Positions 5,009-44,203 of a DNA stretch of 64,000 bases are shown here, piece after piece (the stretch's first letter is position 1; each line of letters starts with the position of its first letter). The translations under genes and the position numbers were made by a program. The stretch covers positions 24,579 to 88,578 of the forward strand of contig DAOOIT010000017.1 of assembly GCA_035384565.1 (NCBI GenBank), in the 5' to 3' direction. The notes beneath the pieces were generated by a model, which was not told where the DNA came from, did not search any database, and saw nothing but the letters and a program-made list of their open reading frames with translations. This stretch comes from Planctomycetota bacterium (lineage in GTDB: Bacteria; Planctomycetota; PUPC01; DSUN01).

Positions 5009-5201
5009 CCCGTCGCGTCGGTTCCGTGGGCGGGACCTCTGCGTCCCGCCTCGGCAGATTCGCGGGACGCGGAAGCCCAGCCCGCACGAAGCAGGGCGGG
5101 CAGGCGATGACACGCTCGTCGCCTGCCCGCGTCCATGCGCGGGCCCCCGCCAGGCCCCTTGCATTCCTGCCGCCGCGCGCTATGGTATCTGAGCCGAACC
5201 A

Positions 5202-5299
5202 GGGTCTGTACGGGAATCCACACGGGACTGCGTCGCCGCGCCTTGCATCCGCCCCGCTGACGCCGGCAACGCAGCCCGCGTGGATTTCCGCACAGACCC
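5202..5299. repeat. Family 1 element, short (internal-deletion) form
   Basis: Same terminal inverted repeats and same first 70 bp as the long form (opposite orientation), with the roughly 180-bp internal segment missing. Confidence 0.7.
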
Positions 5300-6416: not shown

Positions 6417-6557
6417 CGGCGGGTTGCGGGCTCACCAGGGCCTGGCGATCGTGACCTGCCGACCGCCGGGAGCGCGGAACCGGTGCCGCGGCGCCGGCGA
6501 AACCACGCCATAACCGCCTATGTTGCAACACCTTACGCCCTCCCGCATTCCCCCCTT

Positions 6558-6671
6558 GCATACTTGCTCATCGCCCGGGTGAGCGAGTATGGCCGGAACC
6601 GCGAGAATCGCCAATCCTCGCCCTTCTGGCCTTGCTGTATCACTTTCCCCCTCACAGGGTTGATACAACAT
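6558..6671. repeat. Family 2 structured repeat, copy 1 (two hairpins sharing the CATACTTGCTCA arm)
   Basis: About 85% identical to 42598-42711, same orientation. Confidence 0.6.
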
Positions 6672-6937
6672 GGGCACGCTGCGCCCCCCAAGCACCCGGC
6701 TGCGCCCTCCCGAGGAACCACCAGGCCCGCCGAGCCAAGATCGCCAGACCATGAAGAACCGCGCTGTACCTCTCAAGTACCTGCTATATATACGCTTACA
6801 GCGAGCCATCCGTCTGGGGCAATGCGCACGGATTGACCGACCGGTCGCTTGACATCACTAATTTGCTGGGCTATACTATCCCGGAACTGTATTAGAAGCC
6901 GGTCCGTACTTTGGCCCGACTTTGGCGGGGCGGTGCC

Positions 6938-9215: not shown

Positions 9216-9363
9216 GGCTCCTCCTGTGTCGCGGTCCCGTGTGGATTCCCGCACTGCCCCTAAGATACCAAGCATCCCGTGGATGTCAACACCGGAACCC
9301 GGTCGTCGGAACCGCGCGGCGTCGGCCAGGGCCTCACGTGTACCCGCAAACGGGTGTGGGCCA

Positions 9364-9465
9364 TCTCTGGAGGTAGTTTCCGTTGCGGACTCTCATAGCG
9401 ACGAGCGTCCCGCTTGTCGAACGGACGAAGCGAGCCGCTTCCCCTATTCCGGGGATTCCCGCAAT
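9364..9465. repeat. Family 3 repeat, copy 1
   Basis: Shares TCCGTTGCGACTC...AGCGAC.AGCGTCC.GCTTGTCGAACGG...TTCCGGGGAT with 43052-43180. Confidence 0.5.
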
Positions 9466-9479
9466 AGAAGCTGCCTGCG

Positions 9480-9760
9480 ATTCCGGCCTGCACCCCCGGA
9501 AAGGGGTGTGGGCCGGAGTTGTAGGTGGCTGCTGGAGCTCCGAAGGAGCGAAATGGGATAGCCCAGGGCAACGCCCTGGGAACCAGACCGCCCCGCGGCA
9601 GCCCTGACAGGGCGGAATAGAGAGCTTCTATCTCGCCCCTTCAGGGCTGGACCCGTGAATCCCACTGAACCCAGGGCGTTGCCCTGGGCTATCCCATGCG
9701 AGCCCTTCAGGCTCCAGAGAGAACCACCCTGCCTACAATTCCGGCCCACACCCCCCGGGA
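9480..9760. repeat. About 280-bp nested near-perfect palindrome
   Basis: Outer arms GGGGTGTGGGCCGGAGTTGTAGG / CCTACAATTCCGGCCCACACCCC. Inner arms GGGATAGCCCAGGGCAACGCCCTGGG and its reverse complement. Confidence 0.65.
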
Positions 9761-9948: not shown

Positions 9949-10911
9949 GTGAGCATCGCAGACCGGATTCGAGCCGCGTGCCAGGCTGTTGCGCAGTGCG
10001 CAACGCGCGTGCGCATCCGCGAGGCGCGGATCGCGGACTACGCCGCTTCGCTCCCGCTCGACCAGGCGGCGCGCCCGCAACACGACCCGGCCACGCACTA
10101 TCTCGGCCGCGGCGGCGAGACGGTGGCCTTCTTCCTCACGCTCGACACCGTGAACTTCGGCTCGGGCTACTTCCCCCACCTGCGGAAGCGGCCCGGCCAC
10201 TCCGGCTACTTCACCGTCGCGGCGTCGCTCGCCGATGCCTTTCGCGCCCGAGGGCCATTCGCCGCGGAGGAGCTGGCCCGGCTCACCGCGCCCGATTGCG
10301 CGGCCCTCTTCGGCCAGGAGGACGCCGCCGAGCCGATCGGCGAGCTGATGCGCCTGTTCGCCCGGGCGCTGAACGACCTGGGGCGGTTCCTGCTCGAGCG
10401 CTTCGGCGGCGACTTCCTGCGGCTGGTCGCGGCGGCCGAAGGCTCGGCCGAGCGGCTCGCCGCCCTGCTCGCCGAGATGGCGTACTTCCAGGACGTCGAG
10501 CCGTACGGCGCCTGGCAGGTGCCGTTCTACAAGCGGGCGCAGCTTGCGGCGGCCGACCTCGCGATCGCCTTCGGCGGCGAGGGGCCGGGCCGCTTCGGCG
10601 ACCTCGACCGCCTGACGATCTTCGCCGACAACCTGGTGCCCCACGTGCTGCGCGTGGACGGCGTGCTGGCCTACGACGAGGGCCTGGCCGCGCGCATTGA
10701 TGCCGGCGAGCTTGTCCCCGCCGGCTCGCCCGAGGAGGTGGAGATTCGCGCCTGCGCCCTTCATGCGGTGGAGCGGATGGTGGGCGCGCTCCGCGCGGCG
10801 GGCCGCGGCGACGTGACGGCGATGGGGCTGGACTACGTGCTCTGGAACCGCGGGCAGCAGCCGCACTACAAGGCGCAGCCGCGGCACCGCACCCGCACGG
10901 TGTTCTACTAG
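9949..10911 (+). CDS. Queuosine-salvage family protein (DUF2419/Qng1-like), tentative
   Basis: TLDTVNFGSGYF motif region. GTG start at 9949 chosen because the upstream part of the ORF overlaps a 280-bp palindrome. Confidence 0.45.
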   Translation: MSIADRIRAACQAVAQCATRVRIREARIADYAASLPLDQAARPQHDPATHYLGRGGETVAFFLTLDTVNFGSGYFPHLRKRPGHSGYFTVAASLADAFRARGPFAAEELARLTAPDCAALFGQEDAAEPIGELMRLFARALNDLGRFLLERFGGDFLRLVAAAEGSAERLAALLAEMAYFQDVEPYGAWQVPFYKRAQLAAADLAIAFGGEGPGRFGDLDRLTIFADNLVPHVLRVDGVLAYDEGLAARIDAGELVPAGSPEEVEIRACALHAVERMVGALRAAGRGDVTAMGLDYVLWNRGQQPHYKAQPRHRTRTVFY

Positions 10912-11191
10912 GGTCTGTGCGGAAATCCACGCGGGCTGCGTTGCCGGCGCCAGCGGGGCGGATGCAAGGCGCGGCGACGCAGGCGATGCTACGGAGCGCA
11001 TCGCTGAGGAGCCGCAACGCGGCAGACACCCCGCTGCCGCCGCAACCCGAAGGGAAGCCGCGACCTATGGCCTCGAGCTGTGTCGCTCGTCGTCAACGAT
11101 GCTCTCCGCCGCATCGCCTCCTCCGCGCTCCTTGCTCGCGGCCAGAATTCGCGGCGTCGCAGTCCCGCGTGGATTCCCGCACAGACCCTAG
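10909..11191. repeat. MITE-like palindromic element, long form (family 1), with about 30-bp terminal inverted repeats
   Basis: Left end TAGGGTCTGTGCGGAAATCCACGCGGGCTGCG and right end CGCAGTCCCGCGTGGATTCCCGCACAGACCCTAG are reverse complements. Confidence 0.7.
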
Positions 11192-11991
11192 AATTGGCCC
11201 TTGTTATCCGCCTCGGGCTTCTGGGGCTTCTCGCGCTTCTCCATCCCCCTGCGGGCGTCTTCCTCGGCGGCGCGGCGGCGCATGTCGGCCTCTCTCTGGA
11301 GCGCGCGCAGGCGTTCCTCCGTCTCCATGCGCATGCGGTGTTCCATCGCCTCGCGCAGCCGGGCGGCGCCCTCGGGGTCCTGCTTGGCCAGTTCGGCGAT
11401 GAGCTGGCGATGAAGCATTCGGAGCACGAGGGCGCGGATCTCCGGCCCCATGTCGTCCTCGTCGAGAGCGATCTCGAGCGTGCCGCCGTTGCCGATGGGC
11501 AGGCTCACCTTGCCGAAGGGCTGGCCCCCCTTGCGCATCATCTTCTCGTGGTCCGCCTTCAGCAGGGCCTTCTCCTGCTTCGGCTTCAGGGCGGCAAACT
11601 CGCGCTCGCCCTCCTTGGCCACCTCCACCACCACGGCGCCGTCGCGGACGTCCATCTTCCCGCCGGCGAGGCGCGCGATCCACTGGAGCGCCTGGCCCAC
11701 CGGCATCTCGTTCACCCGCAGCGTGAGCGGCATCTGCTTGTCGAGGCCGGGATCCACGATCAGGTTCACCCCGATGAGCTGCTGCATGAAGTTCATCACG
11801 TCCACAATCGGCGTCTCGACGAAGTCGAAGGTCACCTTCTTCGTCTTGAGGAGTTCCTTGATCTTCTTGTCGGCCTCGGGTTCCTCGGCGCCGGCGGCGG
11901 GCTTCGGCTTCTTGTCGGGCGCAGCCGGCTCGCCGCAGAGGCCCGCACGCATCCACAAGGCGGCCAGCAACGCCACGAGAGTGAGTCTCAT
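11188..11991 (-). CDS. Secreted protein with secretin/TonB N-terminal (STN)-like domain and KE-rich coiled-coil tail
   Basis: Signal peptide MRLTLVALLAALW. Last gene of the ECF sigma operon. Confidence 0.5.
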   Translation of the reverse strand: MRLTLVALLAALWMRAGLCGEPAAPDKKPKPAAGAEEPEADKKIKELLKTKKVTFDFVETPIVDVMNFMQQLIGVNLIVDPGLDKQMPLTLRVNEMPVGQALQWIARLAGGKMDVRDGAVVVEVAKEGEREFAALKPKQEKALLKADHEKMMRKGGQPFGKVSLPIGNGGTLEIALDEDDMGPEIRALVLRMLHRQLIAELAKQDPEGAARLREAMEHRMRMETEERLRALQREADMRRRAAEEDARRGMEKREKPQKPEADNKGQF

Positions 11992-41497: not shown

Positions 41498-42505
41498 ATG
41501 CCCCGCAAGAAGGCCACCTTCCTGGCGCCTGCCGCCAACGTCGAGCTGGTCTTCGGCCCCGAGCTCATCGCTCGGGCGCAAGCCCTCTGCGATGTCGCAG
41601 CAACCGCCCTCCCCCACAACGACCCCGCCACCGTCAAGGCCGCACTCCGCGGCGTCGAAATCGTCCTCTCCACCTGGGGCATGCCCAGGATGACCCCCGA
41701 CATCCTCGACGCCGCGCCCGACCTCCGCGTCATCCTCTACGGCGCCAGCTCCGTCAAAGGCTTCGTCACCGAAGCCGTCTACGACCGCGGCATCACCGTC
41801 ACCACCGCGGCCCTCGCCAACGCCACCGCCGTGGCCGAGTTCACCGTCGCACTCATCACCCTCTCGCTCAAGAACGCCTGGGCCCACCTGGCCGCGCTGC
41901 GCCGCGAAGGCCGCCGTGCCTGGCGCCGAGCCGACCTCGGCCCCTCCCGTGGCACCCATCGCGCCGTGGTCGGCATCATCGGTGCCAGCGCCACGGGGCG
42001 CGAAACAATCCGTCTTCTGAAAAGCTACACTTGCCCGATCCTCGTCGCAGACCCGTTCCTCACCCTCGACGAGGCCCGCACCCTCGGCGTTGAGAAGACC
42101 GAACTCGACGACCTCATCGCCCGCAGCGACGTGGTCTCCCTCCACGCCCCAAACCTCCCCCACCTCCGACACATGATTGGCGCCACGCAACTGCGGTGCA
42201 TGAGGGACGGCGCGGTCTTCATCAACACCGCGCGCGGCGCACTCGTGGATGAAGAGGCCCTCGTCGCCGAGCTCCGCACGGGCCGCCTCCTCGCCTGCCT
42301 CGATGTCACCGACCCCGAGCCGCCCGCCGAGGGCAGCCCGCTCTACTCCCTCCCCAACGTCATCCTCACCCCCCACCTCGCCGGCGCCACGGGCGCCGAC
42401 TGCCGACGCATGGGCGAGCTGTGCATCCAGGAACTCGAACGCTACCTTGCCGGCCTGCCGCCACTCCATCCCGTCACCCGCGAGCGGCTTCCCTTCACGA
42501 GCTAG
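41498..42505 (+). CDS. D-isomer-specific 2-hydroxyacid dehydrogenase family protein
   Basis: NAD-binding GxxGxxG and catalytic domain pattern. Confidence 0.85.
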   Translation: MPRKKATFLAPAANVELVFGPELIARAQALCDVAATALPHNDPATVKAALRGVEIVLSTWGMPRMTPDILDAAPDLRVILYGASSVKGFVTEAVYDRGITVTTAALANATAVAEFTVALITLSLKNAWAHLAALRREGRRAWRRADLGPSRGTHRAVVGIIGASATGRETIRLLKSYTCPILVADPFLTLDEARTLGVEKTELDDLIARSDVVSLHAPNLPHLRHMIGATQLRCMRDGAVFINTARGALVDEEALVAELRTGRLLACLDVTDPEPPAEGSPLYSLPNVILTPHLAGATGADCRRMGELCIQELERYLAGLPPLHPVTRERLPFTS

Positions 42506-42545
42506 GGTCTGTGCGGAGACCCCCGTGGGCTGCGCTGCGGGGCCA
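42503..42545. repeat. Family 1 element fragment (left arm) starting at a gene stop codon
   Basis: TAGGGTCTGTGCGGAGACCCCCGTGGGCTGCG. A further right-arm fragment lies at 9229-9256. Confidence 0.5.
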
Positions 42546-42597
42546 AAGGGGGCCCAACGTCCCGCAATGACTTACGATCCCCGGGCATGCCCCCTCC

Positions 42598-42711
42598 CAT
42601 ACTTGCTCATCCCGGAATTGAGCGCGAATGGCCGGAACCGCGAGAATCGTCAATCCTCGGCCATCTGCCCATACTTGCTCACCTGCCCCCTCTCAGGGTT
42701 GAGCAAGTATG
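42598..42711. repeat. Family 2 structured repeat, copy 2
   Basis: Perfect 12-bp stem CATACTTGCTCA/TGAGCAAGTATG around the loop CCTGCCCCCTCTCAGGGT. Confidence 0.6.
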
Positions 42712-43051
42712 AGCAGGCCGCTCGCGGGCACTCGCCAGGGCCTTCCCCACGAACCGCCAGGGCCGCAAGGAGCAGGAACGTCTGCACCCCGCACTAGGCC
42801 AACCGAGGCAAGCCCGCCCACCCCCGAGGCACTAGGCGCTCCCTCAGAACCCGCGTCGCCTGCGGCCAGTGGAAGCAGCATGCTCCAGAGACCACCCTCC
42901 CGAAGGTTCCAATACCCTCGGGAGGGTAACGGGAGGGGCGGGCGCTGGGGGGCGCACCCTCCCGAACGCATTGGAACGTTCGGGAGGGGGGGCTCGCTGG
43001 CCGATTCCAGGCGCAGTCTCCCCCCCAAGGACGGCATTCTCGGGCGTGGAC

Positions 43052-43180
43052 TATCTCTGTAGGCCGTCTCCGTTGCGACTCCCCGCAGCGACAAGCGTCC
43101 AGCTTGTCGAACGGCCAAGGGTAACCGCAAGCGGGACGCTCGCGGCTGCCTGGCAGGGGGCACCCTGTTCCGGGGATCTC
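43052..43180. repeat. Family 3 repeat, copy 2
   Basis: See copy 1. Confidence 0.5.
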
Positions 43181-43228: not shown

Positions 43229-43256
43229 TTGCACTCTCATGGTGAAGCGCTATAAT
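43229..43256 (+). promoter_or_regulatory. parA promoter (TTGCAC-N16-TATAAT)
   Basis: Read from the sequence. A parS-like site abuts the -10 box. Confidence 0.45.
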
Positions 43257-43271
43257 GTTTCACGTGGAACA
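43256..43271. promoter_or_regulatory. parS-like site TGTTTCACGTGGAACA (15/16 to consensus)
   Basis: Palindrome matching the parS consensus TGTTTCACGTGAAACA with one mismatch. Confidence 0.6.
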
Positions 43272-43444
43272 CGACGCCTGCCGGCCGCCCCGCCAGTGTC
43301 GCGCCTGCGGCCAAGCCAAGCGTCTGGCGCTGGACCCCTGTGCATGATATCCCTCCCCGTTCCGGCGGCGTCTCCCCGATCCACATGCCACGACTCGAGG
43401 CCGCGTGAGACTGCGCGACGCGGCTCCAGGCGGGACCCCTCACG

Positions 43445-44203
43445 ATGAAGGTCGTCGCAATCGCAAATCAGAAGGGCGGCGTGGGCAAGACCACTACCGC
43501 CATGAACCTCGCCGCCTGTGTCGCACTCTCGGGAGCGAGGACCCTCCTTGTAGATATAGACCCCCAGGGGAATGCCACCAGCGGGCTGGGGCATCTGCGG
43601 GCACGCAACGGCGGCGCCCACGATGTCCTCTTCGCGCCCGACAAGACACCCGCGGCTGTCAAAGCCACGGACGTCCCCAACCTCTCGCTCTGTCCCGCCA
43701 GCCGCCTCCTCGGCGGCGCCGAGACCGAGCTGGCCCATCACCCCGACCGGGTCACCCGCTTCCGCAAAGCAGTCGCAGCCATAAGTTCTGATTACGACTA
43801 TGTTTTCGTCGACTGCCCGCCGTCGCTAGGCCTCTTGCCCACCAACGCCCTGGCGGCCGCCGACGGCCTCCTAATCCCCATCCAGTGCGAGTACTACGCC
43901 ATGGAGGGGCTGGCGCAGATGCTCGAGCTCTTCCAGCATGTGCGCGACCACTACAACCCCAAGCTGCGTCTCGAGGGCATCCTCTTCACCATGTACCAGC
44001 CCGGCCTCCCGTACGCCGATGAAGTCGCCAACGAGGTGCGCTACCACTGTGGACAACATGTCTACGAGACCTCGATCCCTCGGGACACGCTGCTCAGTGA
44101 AGCGCCCTCGCACGGCAAGCCGATCATTTACTACGCTCCACGCTCGATCGGAGCCTGGAGCTACGTCGCACTGGCAAAGGAGATTCTCTCCGATGAAGAG
44201 TAG
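43445..44203 (+). CDS. parA: Chromosome partitioning ATPase ParA/Soj
   Basis: KGGVGKTT deviant Walker A. Confidence 0.95.

Follow-up and report, generated by a model that had tools for sequence, protein, structure and literature searches.

A probable ISL3-type MITE family with a conserved three-hairpin core, represented by two copies in a Planctomycetota contig

Prokaryotic MITEs typically show TIRs, direct repeats that fade, a preference for AT-rich intergenic targets, stable stem-loops and mutual nesting (PMC10969869). The described systems closest to the element reported here belong to the ISL3 family. ISArsp7, an ISL3 member, has inverted repeats GGCTCTTCGCGG... and an 8-bp direct repeat (PMC6305408), and the ISL3 elements of Microcystis aeruginosa PCC 7806, together with an ISL3-derived MITE, have the ends GGCTCTTCG and 8-nt direct repeats (PMC11448079). 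The present element likewise has ends starting with GGCTCTTC(G) and 8-bp duplications, as do ISArsp7 and the Microcystis elements (PMC6305408, PMC11448079), and it shares with the Microcystis MITE the properties of being short, non-coding, dispersed and in need of being moved in trans (PMC11448079). Similarity to the ISL3 elements does not reach beyond the first 8-9 bases of the TIR, and no partner ISL3 transposase was found here. The host here is an uncultured Planctomycetota, and a core of three hairpins is conserved above the ends.

Other families of small repeats resemble the element in part. QMITE1 and QMITE2 of Coxiella burnetii, as summarized in a secondary account, also combine a direct repeat with TIRs of 23-29 bp and a core of about 113-145 bp, their transcripts are predicted to fold stably and the core can yield small RNAs (PMC5896051 via PMC10969869). 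The present element is unrelated to them in sequence, in host and in its likely parent IS. The pneumococcal BOX, RUP and SPRITE elements cluster, insert into one another in intergenic DNA and form stable stem-loops, as is the case here (PMC10969869). BOX lacks the classical signature of TIRs and target-site duplications, whereas the present element has 25-bp TIRs and 8-bp duplications. BOX elements are of modular build, and a comparable modularity is seen in two of the metagenomic loci discussed below, L034 and L082, in which a hairpin-plus-spacer module is duplicated. The Correia elements of Neisseria are MITEs with TIRs of about 26 bp and many intergenic copies that are co-transcribed with their neighbours, and their hairpins are substrates of RNase III and affect mRNA stability. 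They duplicate TA and measure about 100-155 bp, and their hairpin is formed by the TIRs themselves. In the present element, by contrast, it is internal hairpins that are conserved, and there is no covariation in the TIRs. Finally, the REP/REPIN sequences mobilised by RAYT are likewise conserved, multi-copy extragenic palindromes able to fold as single strands, although REPs measure 20-40 bp, carry a GTAG or CGTC tag and have neither TIRs nor target duplications, none of which fits (PMC3733652). A REP/RAYT reading was therefore rejected: the stems start with CAT, there is no GTAG or CGTC tag, and the unit has TIRs and duplications.

The window, that is, the whole stretch of 64,000 nucleotides that was analysed, had been given a preliminary description in which a structured element of about 115 bp occurs twice, at 6558-6671 and 42598-42711, with an identity of about 85%. 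Both copies were found on the plus strand, the second exactly at 42598-42711 and the first displaced by one base, its correct start being 6559, so that the corrected register is 6559-6672 versus 42598-42711. Over the span described, identity amounted to 88 of 115 positions (77%) and was thus lower than proposed. The block said to be common to the copies, the 22-nt ATGGCCGGAACCGCGAGAATCG, is indeed identical at 6589-6610 and 42628-42649 (plus strand), followed in both by N and CAATCCTCG; a 20-mer inside it occurs twice in the window, as against 0.04 times in shuffles. Neither BLAST nor a covariance model of the core revealed a third copy in the window. The extent of about 115 bp was too short, similarity between the copies continuing outward to approximately 6429-6760 and 42506-42832.

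Copy 1 is a complete element of 332 nt (6429-6760, plus strand), as delimited by TIR search, BLAST and alignment with the consensus of the family; compared with copies of 364-371 nt, it lacks about 37 nt internally in its 3′ part. Its 5′ TIR GGCTCACCAGGGCCTGGCGATCGTG (6429-6453, plus strand) has 3 mismatches to the family TIR consensus, and its 3′ TIR CAAGATCGCCAGACCATGAAGAACC (6736-6760, plus strand; reverse complement GGTTCTTCATGGTCTGGCGATCTTG) matches its own 5′ TIR at 19 of 25 positions. Copy 2 (plus strand, approximate bounds 42506-42832 from the consensus alignment and BLAST to the full-length copy L071) is degenerate. Its 5′ part, adjoining the stop codon of a 2-hydroxyacid dehydrogenase gene, has decayed or been truncated, its core is intact and its 3′ part is still recognisable, with identities to the family consensus of 41, 90 and 65%, respectively; a remnant of the 3′ TIR, CAAGCCCGCCCACCCCCGAGGCAC (42809-42832, plus strand), matches the consensus at about 15 of 25 positions. 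BLAST with L071 covered 6429-6730 in copy 1 and 42562-42818 in copy 2. The stop codon TAG of the dehydrogenase gene (41498-42505) lies inside TAGGGTCTG (42503-42511), which resembles positions 8-16 of the 5′ TIR, so that insertion of the MITE may have contributed the end of this gene or displaced it. A homologue of the same length (335 aa) at L131 is 87% identical and has a different gene 16 nt downstream.

Further copies were collected by a metagenome scan with the 18-mer CCGGAACCGCGAGAATCG, whose invariance in the resulting set is by construction. The scan returned at least 114 loci, at least 37 of them carrying the element, and at least 30 distinct copies were listed where the preliminary description had counted two. 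With the covariance model of the core, one further copy lacking the exact 18-mer was recovered from related contigs; a match of 23.7 bits in L127 was dismissed because it lies inside a called gene (GNAT acetyltransferase). A single group of sample series, which also contains the strain of the window itself, supplied most of the listed copies, and the element is scattered through uncultured Planctomycetota from anaerobic digesters. In the GTDB species genomes, a scan with the exact 20-mer gave only two chance matches in unrelated DNA. Among the matches listed all copies are intergenic, their orientation with respect to left and right neighbours is near even (13:11 and 13:9), and the adjoining ORFs read as ordinary host genes. 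The insertion sites are AT-rich and often follow directly on stop codons, about half of the copies abut gene starts and not gene ends, and many sit at contig ends.

The 115-nt piece had been described as a two-copy element. In 28 of the 30 distinct copies listed, it was found inside a larger repeat unit bounded by TIRs, intact or truncated, which is the outcome that the preliminary description had named as refuting it. Pairwise identity among copies is 0.28 in the 5′ flank and rises abruptly to 0.75 precisely at the first base of the TIR. The TIRs measure 25 bp (consensus GGCTCWTCAGGGTYTGGCGATCCTG), the 5′ TIR being GGCTCATCAGGGTCTGGCGATCCTG and the reverse complement of the 3′ TIR GGCTCTTCAGGGTTTGGCGATCCTG; the 3′ end of the unit is an inverted CAGGATCGCCAAACCCTGAAGAGCC. 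Within one copy the two TIRs match at 18-21 of 25 positions. Since 28 of their differences were one-sided and 3 shared, the TIRs do not covary and behave as ends recognised by a protein, and a role as closing stem of an RNA was ruled out on the same count. Direct repeats flank four of the seven complete copies, namely AATATTCT at L070 (8/8), TGAAATAG/TGAGATAG at L118 (7/8), AGATGA at L071 (6/6) and GCGGAAT at L035 (7/7, with a 2-nt offset). At window copy 1 and at L121 there was no recognisable target-site duplication; direct repeats of prokaryotic MITEs fade over time (PMC10969869).

Complete copies measure 332-371 nt, and a variant of 768 nt at L095, a locus with two element copies head to tail, holds other nested repeats. 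The sole recurrent frame (24 codons, MAGTARIA...SQG) is broken in 4 of 29 copies and its variation by codon position (66/34/53) shows no third-position excess. A small-ORF reading, based on this frame or on the ATG at the end of hairpin 2, was ruled out on these grounds, and the local ORFs gave no Pfam matches. The reverse complement of the 3′ TIR, GGCTCTTCA, matches the ISL3 tip GGCTCTTC(G) at 8 of 9 positions, and the 5′ TIR, GGCTCATCA, at 7 of 9. Together with the 8-bp duplication, the TIR tip GGCTCTTC/GGCTCATC thus points to a probable assignment to ISL3. An autonomous element combining these TIRs with a transposase was not found in the window or in 415 kb of related contigs, the window and the element-bearing loci contained neither a TIR pair 1-3 kb apart nor a transposase-like neighbour, and no autonomous partner was found in viral, plasmid and phage collections (viral scan; plasmid and phage BLAST). 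Searches through the homologues of both flanking genes (66-87% identity) yielded no empty insertion site, because the relatives of these genes sit in non-syntenic contexts.

The copies are many, their TIR boundaries sharp, target-site duplications present, their position intergenic and their orientation random. We therefore consider it probable that each of the two stretches in the window is the central core of a MITE copy, the element being non-coding, 330-370 bp long, with 25-bp TIRs and inserted in AT-rich intergenic 8-mers that are duplicated, and most likely moved in trans by an ISL3-family DDE transposase encoded elsewhere. The copies show that a TIR-bounded, non-coding unit present many times produced 8-bp duplications when it inserted; its movement by an ISL3-type transposase is likely. 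A relic of an IS200/IS605-type element or of an omega-RNA was ruled out by the TIRs and 8-bp duplications, and there was no HEARO match in Rfam. An attC-like reading was rejected on anatomy.

The core contains three hairpins. Hairpin 1, absent from the preliminary description, lies at 6559-6591 in copy 1 and at 42598-42630 in copy 2 (both plus strand), and its 12-nt arm is the same as that of the 3′ hairpin of copy 2. In copy 1 it reads CATACTTGCTCATC, loop GCCCG, GGTGAGCGAGTATG, with 14 pairs including two T.G wobbles (-21.1 kcal/mol); in copy 2 (CATACTTGCTCATC ... TTGAGCGCGAATG) it is decayed, with two mismatches (-7.2 kcal/mol). The block ATGGCCGGAACCGCGAGAATCG and the middle hairpin occupy 6589-6631 of copy 1 (plus strand), the outer helix pairing GGCCGGAA (6591-6598) with TTCTGGCC (6624-6631) and the inner one GCGAG (6601-6605) with CTCGC (6617-6621), all on the plus strand. 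Hairpin 2, the one originally noticed, was confirmed in both copies. At 42668-42711 (plus strand) in copy 2 the stem CATACTTGCTCA (42670-42681) / TGAGCAAGTATG (42700-42711) is a perfect 12-bp helix (-23.2 kcal/mol), assigned to stem type B. In copy 1 (6634-6669, plus strand; stem type A, partly decayed) TGTATCA (6636-6642) pairs with TGATACA (6661-6667), and the stem extends as (GC)TGTATCA/TGATACA(AC) to GCTGTATCA/TGATACAAC with one mismatch, around a loop with a CCC..GGG mini-stem. Four stem pairs of this hairpin differ on both sides between the copies with pairing kept, which bears out the compensatory changes first described. The 136-nt segments fold more stably than their shuffles, with z = -4.3 and -4.2 on the plus strand and -2.8 and -4.8 on the minus strand.

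Maintenance of the stems and statistical covariation, the checks proposed for more copies, could be assessed on 29 distinct copies. In the three core hairpins 90.7% of the pair cells are standard pairs, compared with 32-39% in the same copies when the partner columns are slid by 1-3; 14 pairs show double-sided changes, and the covariation score was reached by none of 500 shuffles. RNAalifold independently predicted the same three hairpins, and a helix GTGGCC...GGCCAC in the 5′ part, for which it gave no support, was dropped. Hairpin 2 occurs with three stem types, A (CATGCTGTATCA, n = 20), B (CATACTTGCTCA, n = 7) and C (CCAACTGTATCA, n = 2), type B having the same arm as hairpin 1. The two copies in the window represent types A and B, so that the covariation seen between them is a difference between subfamilies; the number of independent covariation events is small. 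Compensated stem changes between subfamilies indicate that a single-stranded fold is under constraint. The proposal of selection on secondary structure held in part, in that the hairpins are kept by compensatory change across the 29 copies, whereas an independent small RNA or attenuator did not find support.

That the copies are free-standing small RNA genes or cis-regulatory leaders, with the TIRs as closing stem of the RNA, is the earlier proposal and now appears improbable. The hairpins are conserved with covariation, the loop of hairpin 2 carries a C-rich run resembling an anti-Shine-Dalgarno sequence (UCCCCCUC or UCCUCCUC), and MITE-derived small RNAs are known from Coxiella (PMC10969869), all of which would suit an RNA gene. 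Against this, no sigma-70-like promoter was found inside copy 1, with the reservation that promoters of Planctomycetota may differ, a good TTGACA-N17-TATACT site lying outside it at 6849-6877. Nor does copy 1 contain a good intrinsic terminator, its sole terminator-like site being weak and on the minus strand. No Rfam 15 family reached the gathering threshold at either copy, and at E<=10 both loci gave only low-scoring hairpin noise of the microRNA or CRISPR-repeat type. Moreover, neither the orientation of the copies nor their neighbours follow a pattern, the unit is flanked by target-site duplications, and the ends, with their preponderance of one-sided differences, do not covary. Finally, G.U and A.C mismatches were equally common (45 versus 48), so that no strand is singled out as the RNA.

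The last of the original suggestions, a cruciform recognised by a protein in a sequence-specific manner, also fits poorly. The palindromes would then be operators for a dimeric DNA-binding protein, a host regulator or a transposase binding internal sites, spread by the element. In favour of such sites are the 12-nt arm CATACTTGCTCA, present up to four times per element (two direct and two inverted), and the positions CAT.CT...TCA, common to all hairpin-2 stem types. However, three stem sequences coexist that differ at 3-4 of 12 positions, the arms are spaced by 5 nt in hairpin 1 and by 18 nt in hairpin 2, and complementary changes in the two arms suit a fold, whereas a protein would need unchanged half-sites. 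We hold this reading to be highly improbable; together with the free-standing small RNA it fits the data least well.

The conservation of the core relative to the remainder of the element was quantified in type A copies. Divergence from the subfamily consensus was 0.6-1.2% in the stems of hairpin 2 (3 changes in 336 sites), of which half of the 5′ arm columns, and none of the 3′ arm, had been used to define the stem type. The corresponding values were 6-8% for the hairpin-1 stems, 20% for the hairpin-1 loop, 15% for the 5′ TIR and 13-19% for the remaining parts. The core thus diverges 3-15 times less than TIRs and flanks. The flanks carry about 4% of private changes, as against about 1% for the core. 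As two thirds of the variation in the flanks is common to several copies, this contrast reflects in part constraint in the spreading lineages and not decay after insertion. A MITE, whether moved by cut-and-paste or copy-out, needs only its ends, and the stronger conservation of the core is therefore not explained by the MITE model alone. Within that model we prefer, with somewhat less than even confidence, a reading in which the parent IS had a structured 5′ leader, with CAT...ATG stems burying start codons, and the core would descend from this leader and persist in the spreading MITE lineages. Such a leader relic would explain the compensation between subfamilies.

The same contrast within individual copies could indicate that an RNA hairpin module has been exapted by the host, acting in either orientation in read-through transcripts as 3′-end protector, terminator or insulator, or processing site, and kept after decay of the TIRs. 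Perfect hairpin 2 stems were found in dead copies, namely window copy 2, the 5′-truncated L046, L055, L074, L092 and L018. The palindromes fold equally in either transcript orientation, and the random orientation and the equal wobble counts on the two strands are as expected for such a module. Exaptation would account both for the retention in dead copies and for the absent strand bias. Many copies directly follow stop codons, and roles of this kind have been reported for the transcripts of MITEs, BOX and SPRITE (PMC10969869). Yet no U-tract follows the hairpins, leaving the one weak terminator-like site, about half of the copies abut gene starts, and a purely structural role should tolerate G.U and compensated changes within a subfamily, whereas the type A stems are near-invariant. 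On balance, exaptation is possible but doubtful.

A second group of observations bears on recombination. Locus L079 (4700-5847) and L095 (1726-2875) share the 3′ half of one MITE copy and the whole of the next at about 97% identity, while the 5′ halves and flanks are unrelated; the breakpoint adjoins hairpin 1, which shows recombination between copies inside the core and is evidence that MITE copies mediate recombination or rearrangement. Low divergence and pairing of the core might accordingly have arisen at the DNA level, by gene conversion or recombination between dispersed copies, started at the fragile palindromes, or by templated correction of quasi-palindromes, and not by selection. The equal frequency of G.U and A.C, which gives no sign of RNA-specific selection, and the flank variation that is mostly shared and not private would agree with this. 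However, stem types A and B coexist without homogenisation in one genome, the window having both. Moreover, correction within quasi-palindromes would carry roughly half of new mutations over to both arms and so leave many compensated changes within a subfamily, of which there are none in hairpin 2 of type A. We regard a DNA-level origin as quite unlikely and place it, for the core, behind the relic of a parent-IS leader, which comes first, and the exapted hairpin.

At L034 and L082 the core is found on a different repeat backbone of about 290 nt that does not have these TIRs. The backbone (L034 780-1160; L082 2950-3260, minus strand) is 73% identical between the two loci, lacks the GGCTC TIRs and carries beside the core an extra module of a hairpin plus GGCCGGAACC(A/G)CGAGAA. 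Read coverage of L034 is similar to that of contigs in the same assembly with the TIR-bounded form, and both forms are thus probably from the same genome. The presence of the core on a second backbone suggests that it may have a life of its own. In the strongest form of this idea, the core of about 115 nt, consisting of hairpin 1, the GGCCGGAACCGCGAGAAUCG middle hairpin and hairpin 2 with its C-rich loop, would be a functional structured module, recognised as a fold plus CAT.CT...TCA, riding at least two backbones and maintained, once the ends had decayed, by purifying selection at dozens of loci; it might be a regulatory RNA carried by a MITE, for example, or a hairpin to which some protein binds. 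We consider this form unlikely.

Several other repeats and sites were observed in the surroundings of the two copies. Hairpins that are GC-rich and REP-like (CCCTCCCGAAGG and CCTTCGGGAGGG around a loop of about 8 nt) lie at 42885-42935 and 42950-43000 and recur in L055, L095, L078, L033, L021, L119 and L039, often nested in or adjoining the MITE, as in the 768-nt variant of L095. Another two-copy repeat, at 9351-9438 and 43041-43128, is 75% identical over 88 nt and has a third relative at L119 520-594; in L031, L074, L055 and L119 a segment similar to it stands in place of the 3′ part of the MITE. Its second copy (43041-43128) shares an intergenic region of 940 nt with MITE copy 2. Upstream of parA (43445-44203) and parB, this region contains at 43229-43272 a promoter close to consensus (TTGCAC-N17-TATAAT) and, directly after it, the parS-like palindrome TGTTTCACGTGGAACA, the rest of the region consisting of MITE copy 2 and the two other repeat families.

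The only Rfam match at the gathering threshold in the window was the Acido-Lenti-1 RNA (44.1 bits), at 9536-9580 on the minus strand and 9670-9697 on the plus strand, with the inverted partner about 165 nt away. This inverted pair recurs at L021 1687-1850, L039 3650-3813, L013 4502-4665 and L093 3780-3943, and the motif acts here like the two arms of a further dispersed element with inverted repeats, located in L021 just 3′ of the MITE core. A 28-nt motif CCCGCGTGGATTYCCGCACAGACCC forms inverted pairs at 5201-5230 (minus) / 5275-5299 (plus) and 10908-10935 (minus) / 11160-11200 (plus), and was also seen at 9236-9264 and in L027 (1178-1277). Its pairs lie in intergenic regions that apparently separate divergent genes, at a similar upstream distance, and resemble a shared promoter or operator element.

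In summary, the element is probably a MITE with an unusually well-preserved internal hairpin core, which could be left over from the leader of the parent IS, be an RNA hairpin exapted by the host or result from gene conversion. For annotation, what appeared to be a structured RNA in two copies becomes a defined family of repeats, carried by uncultured Planctomycetota of high GC content that come from anaerobic digesters. The family breaks assemblies, is found nested with other repeats and offers a substrate on which different loci recombine. It also carries a warning, since compensatory changes that look clean between two copies may stem from subfamilies of a mobile element and do not necessarily point to an RNA gene. 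If selection explains why the core is conserved 3-15 times above the ends and why it occurs on a second backbone, the family would clearly exemplify, in bacteria, how a structured module can be spread by a MITE and then kept for its fold.
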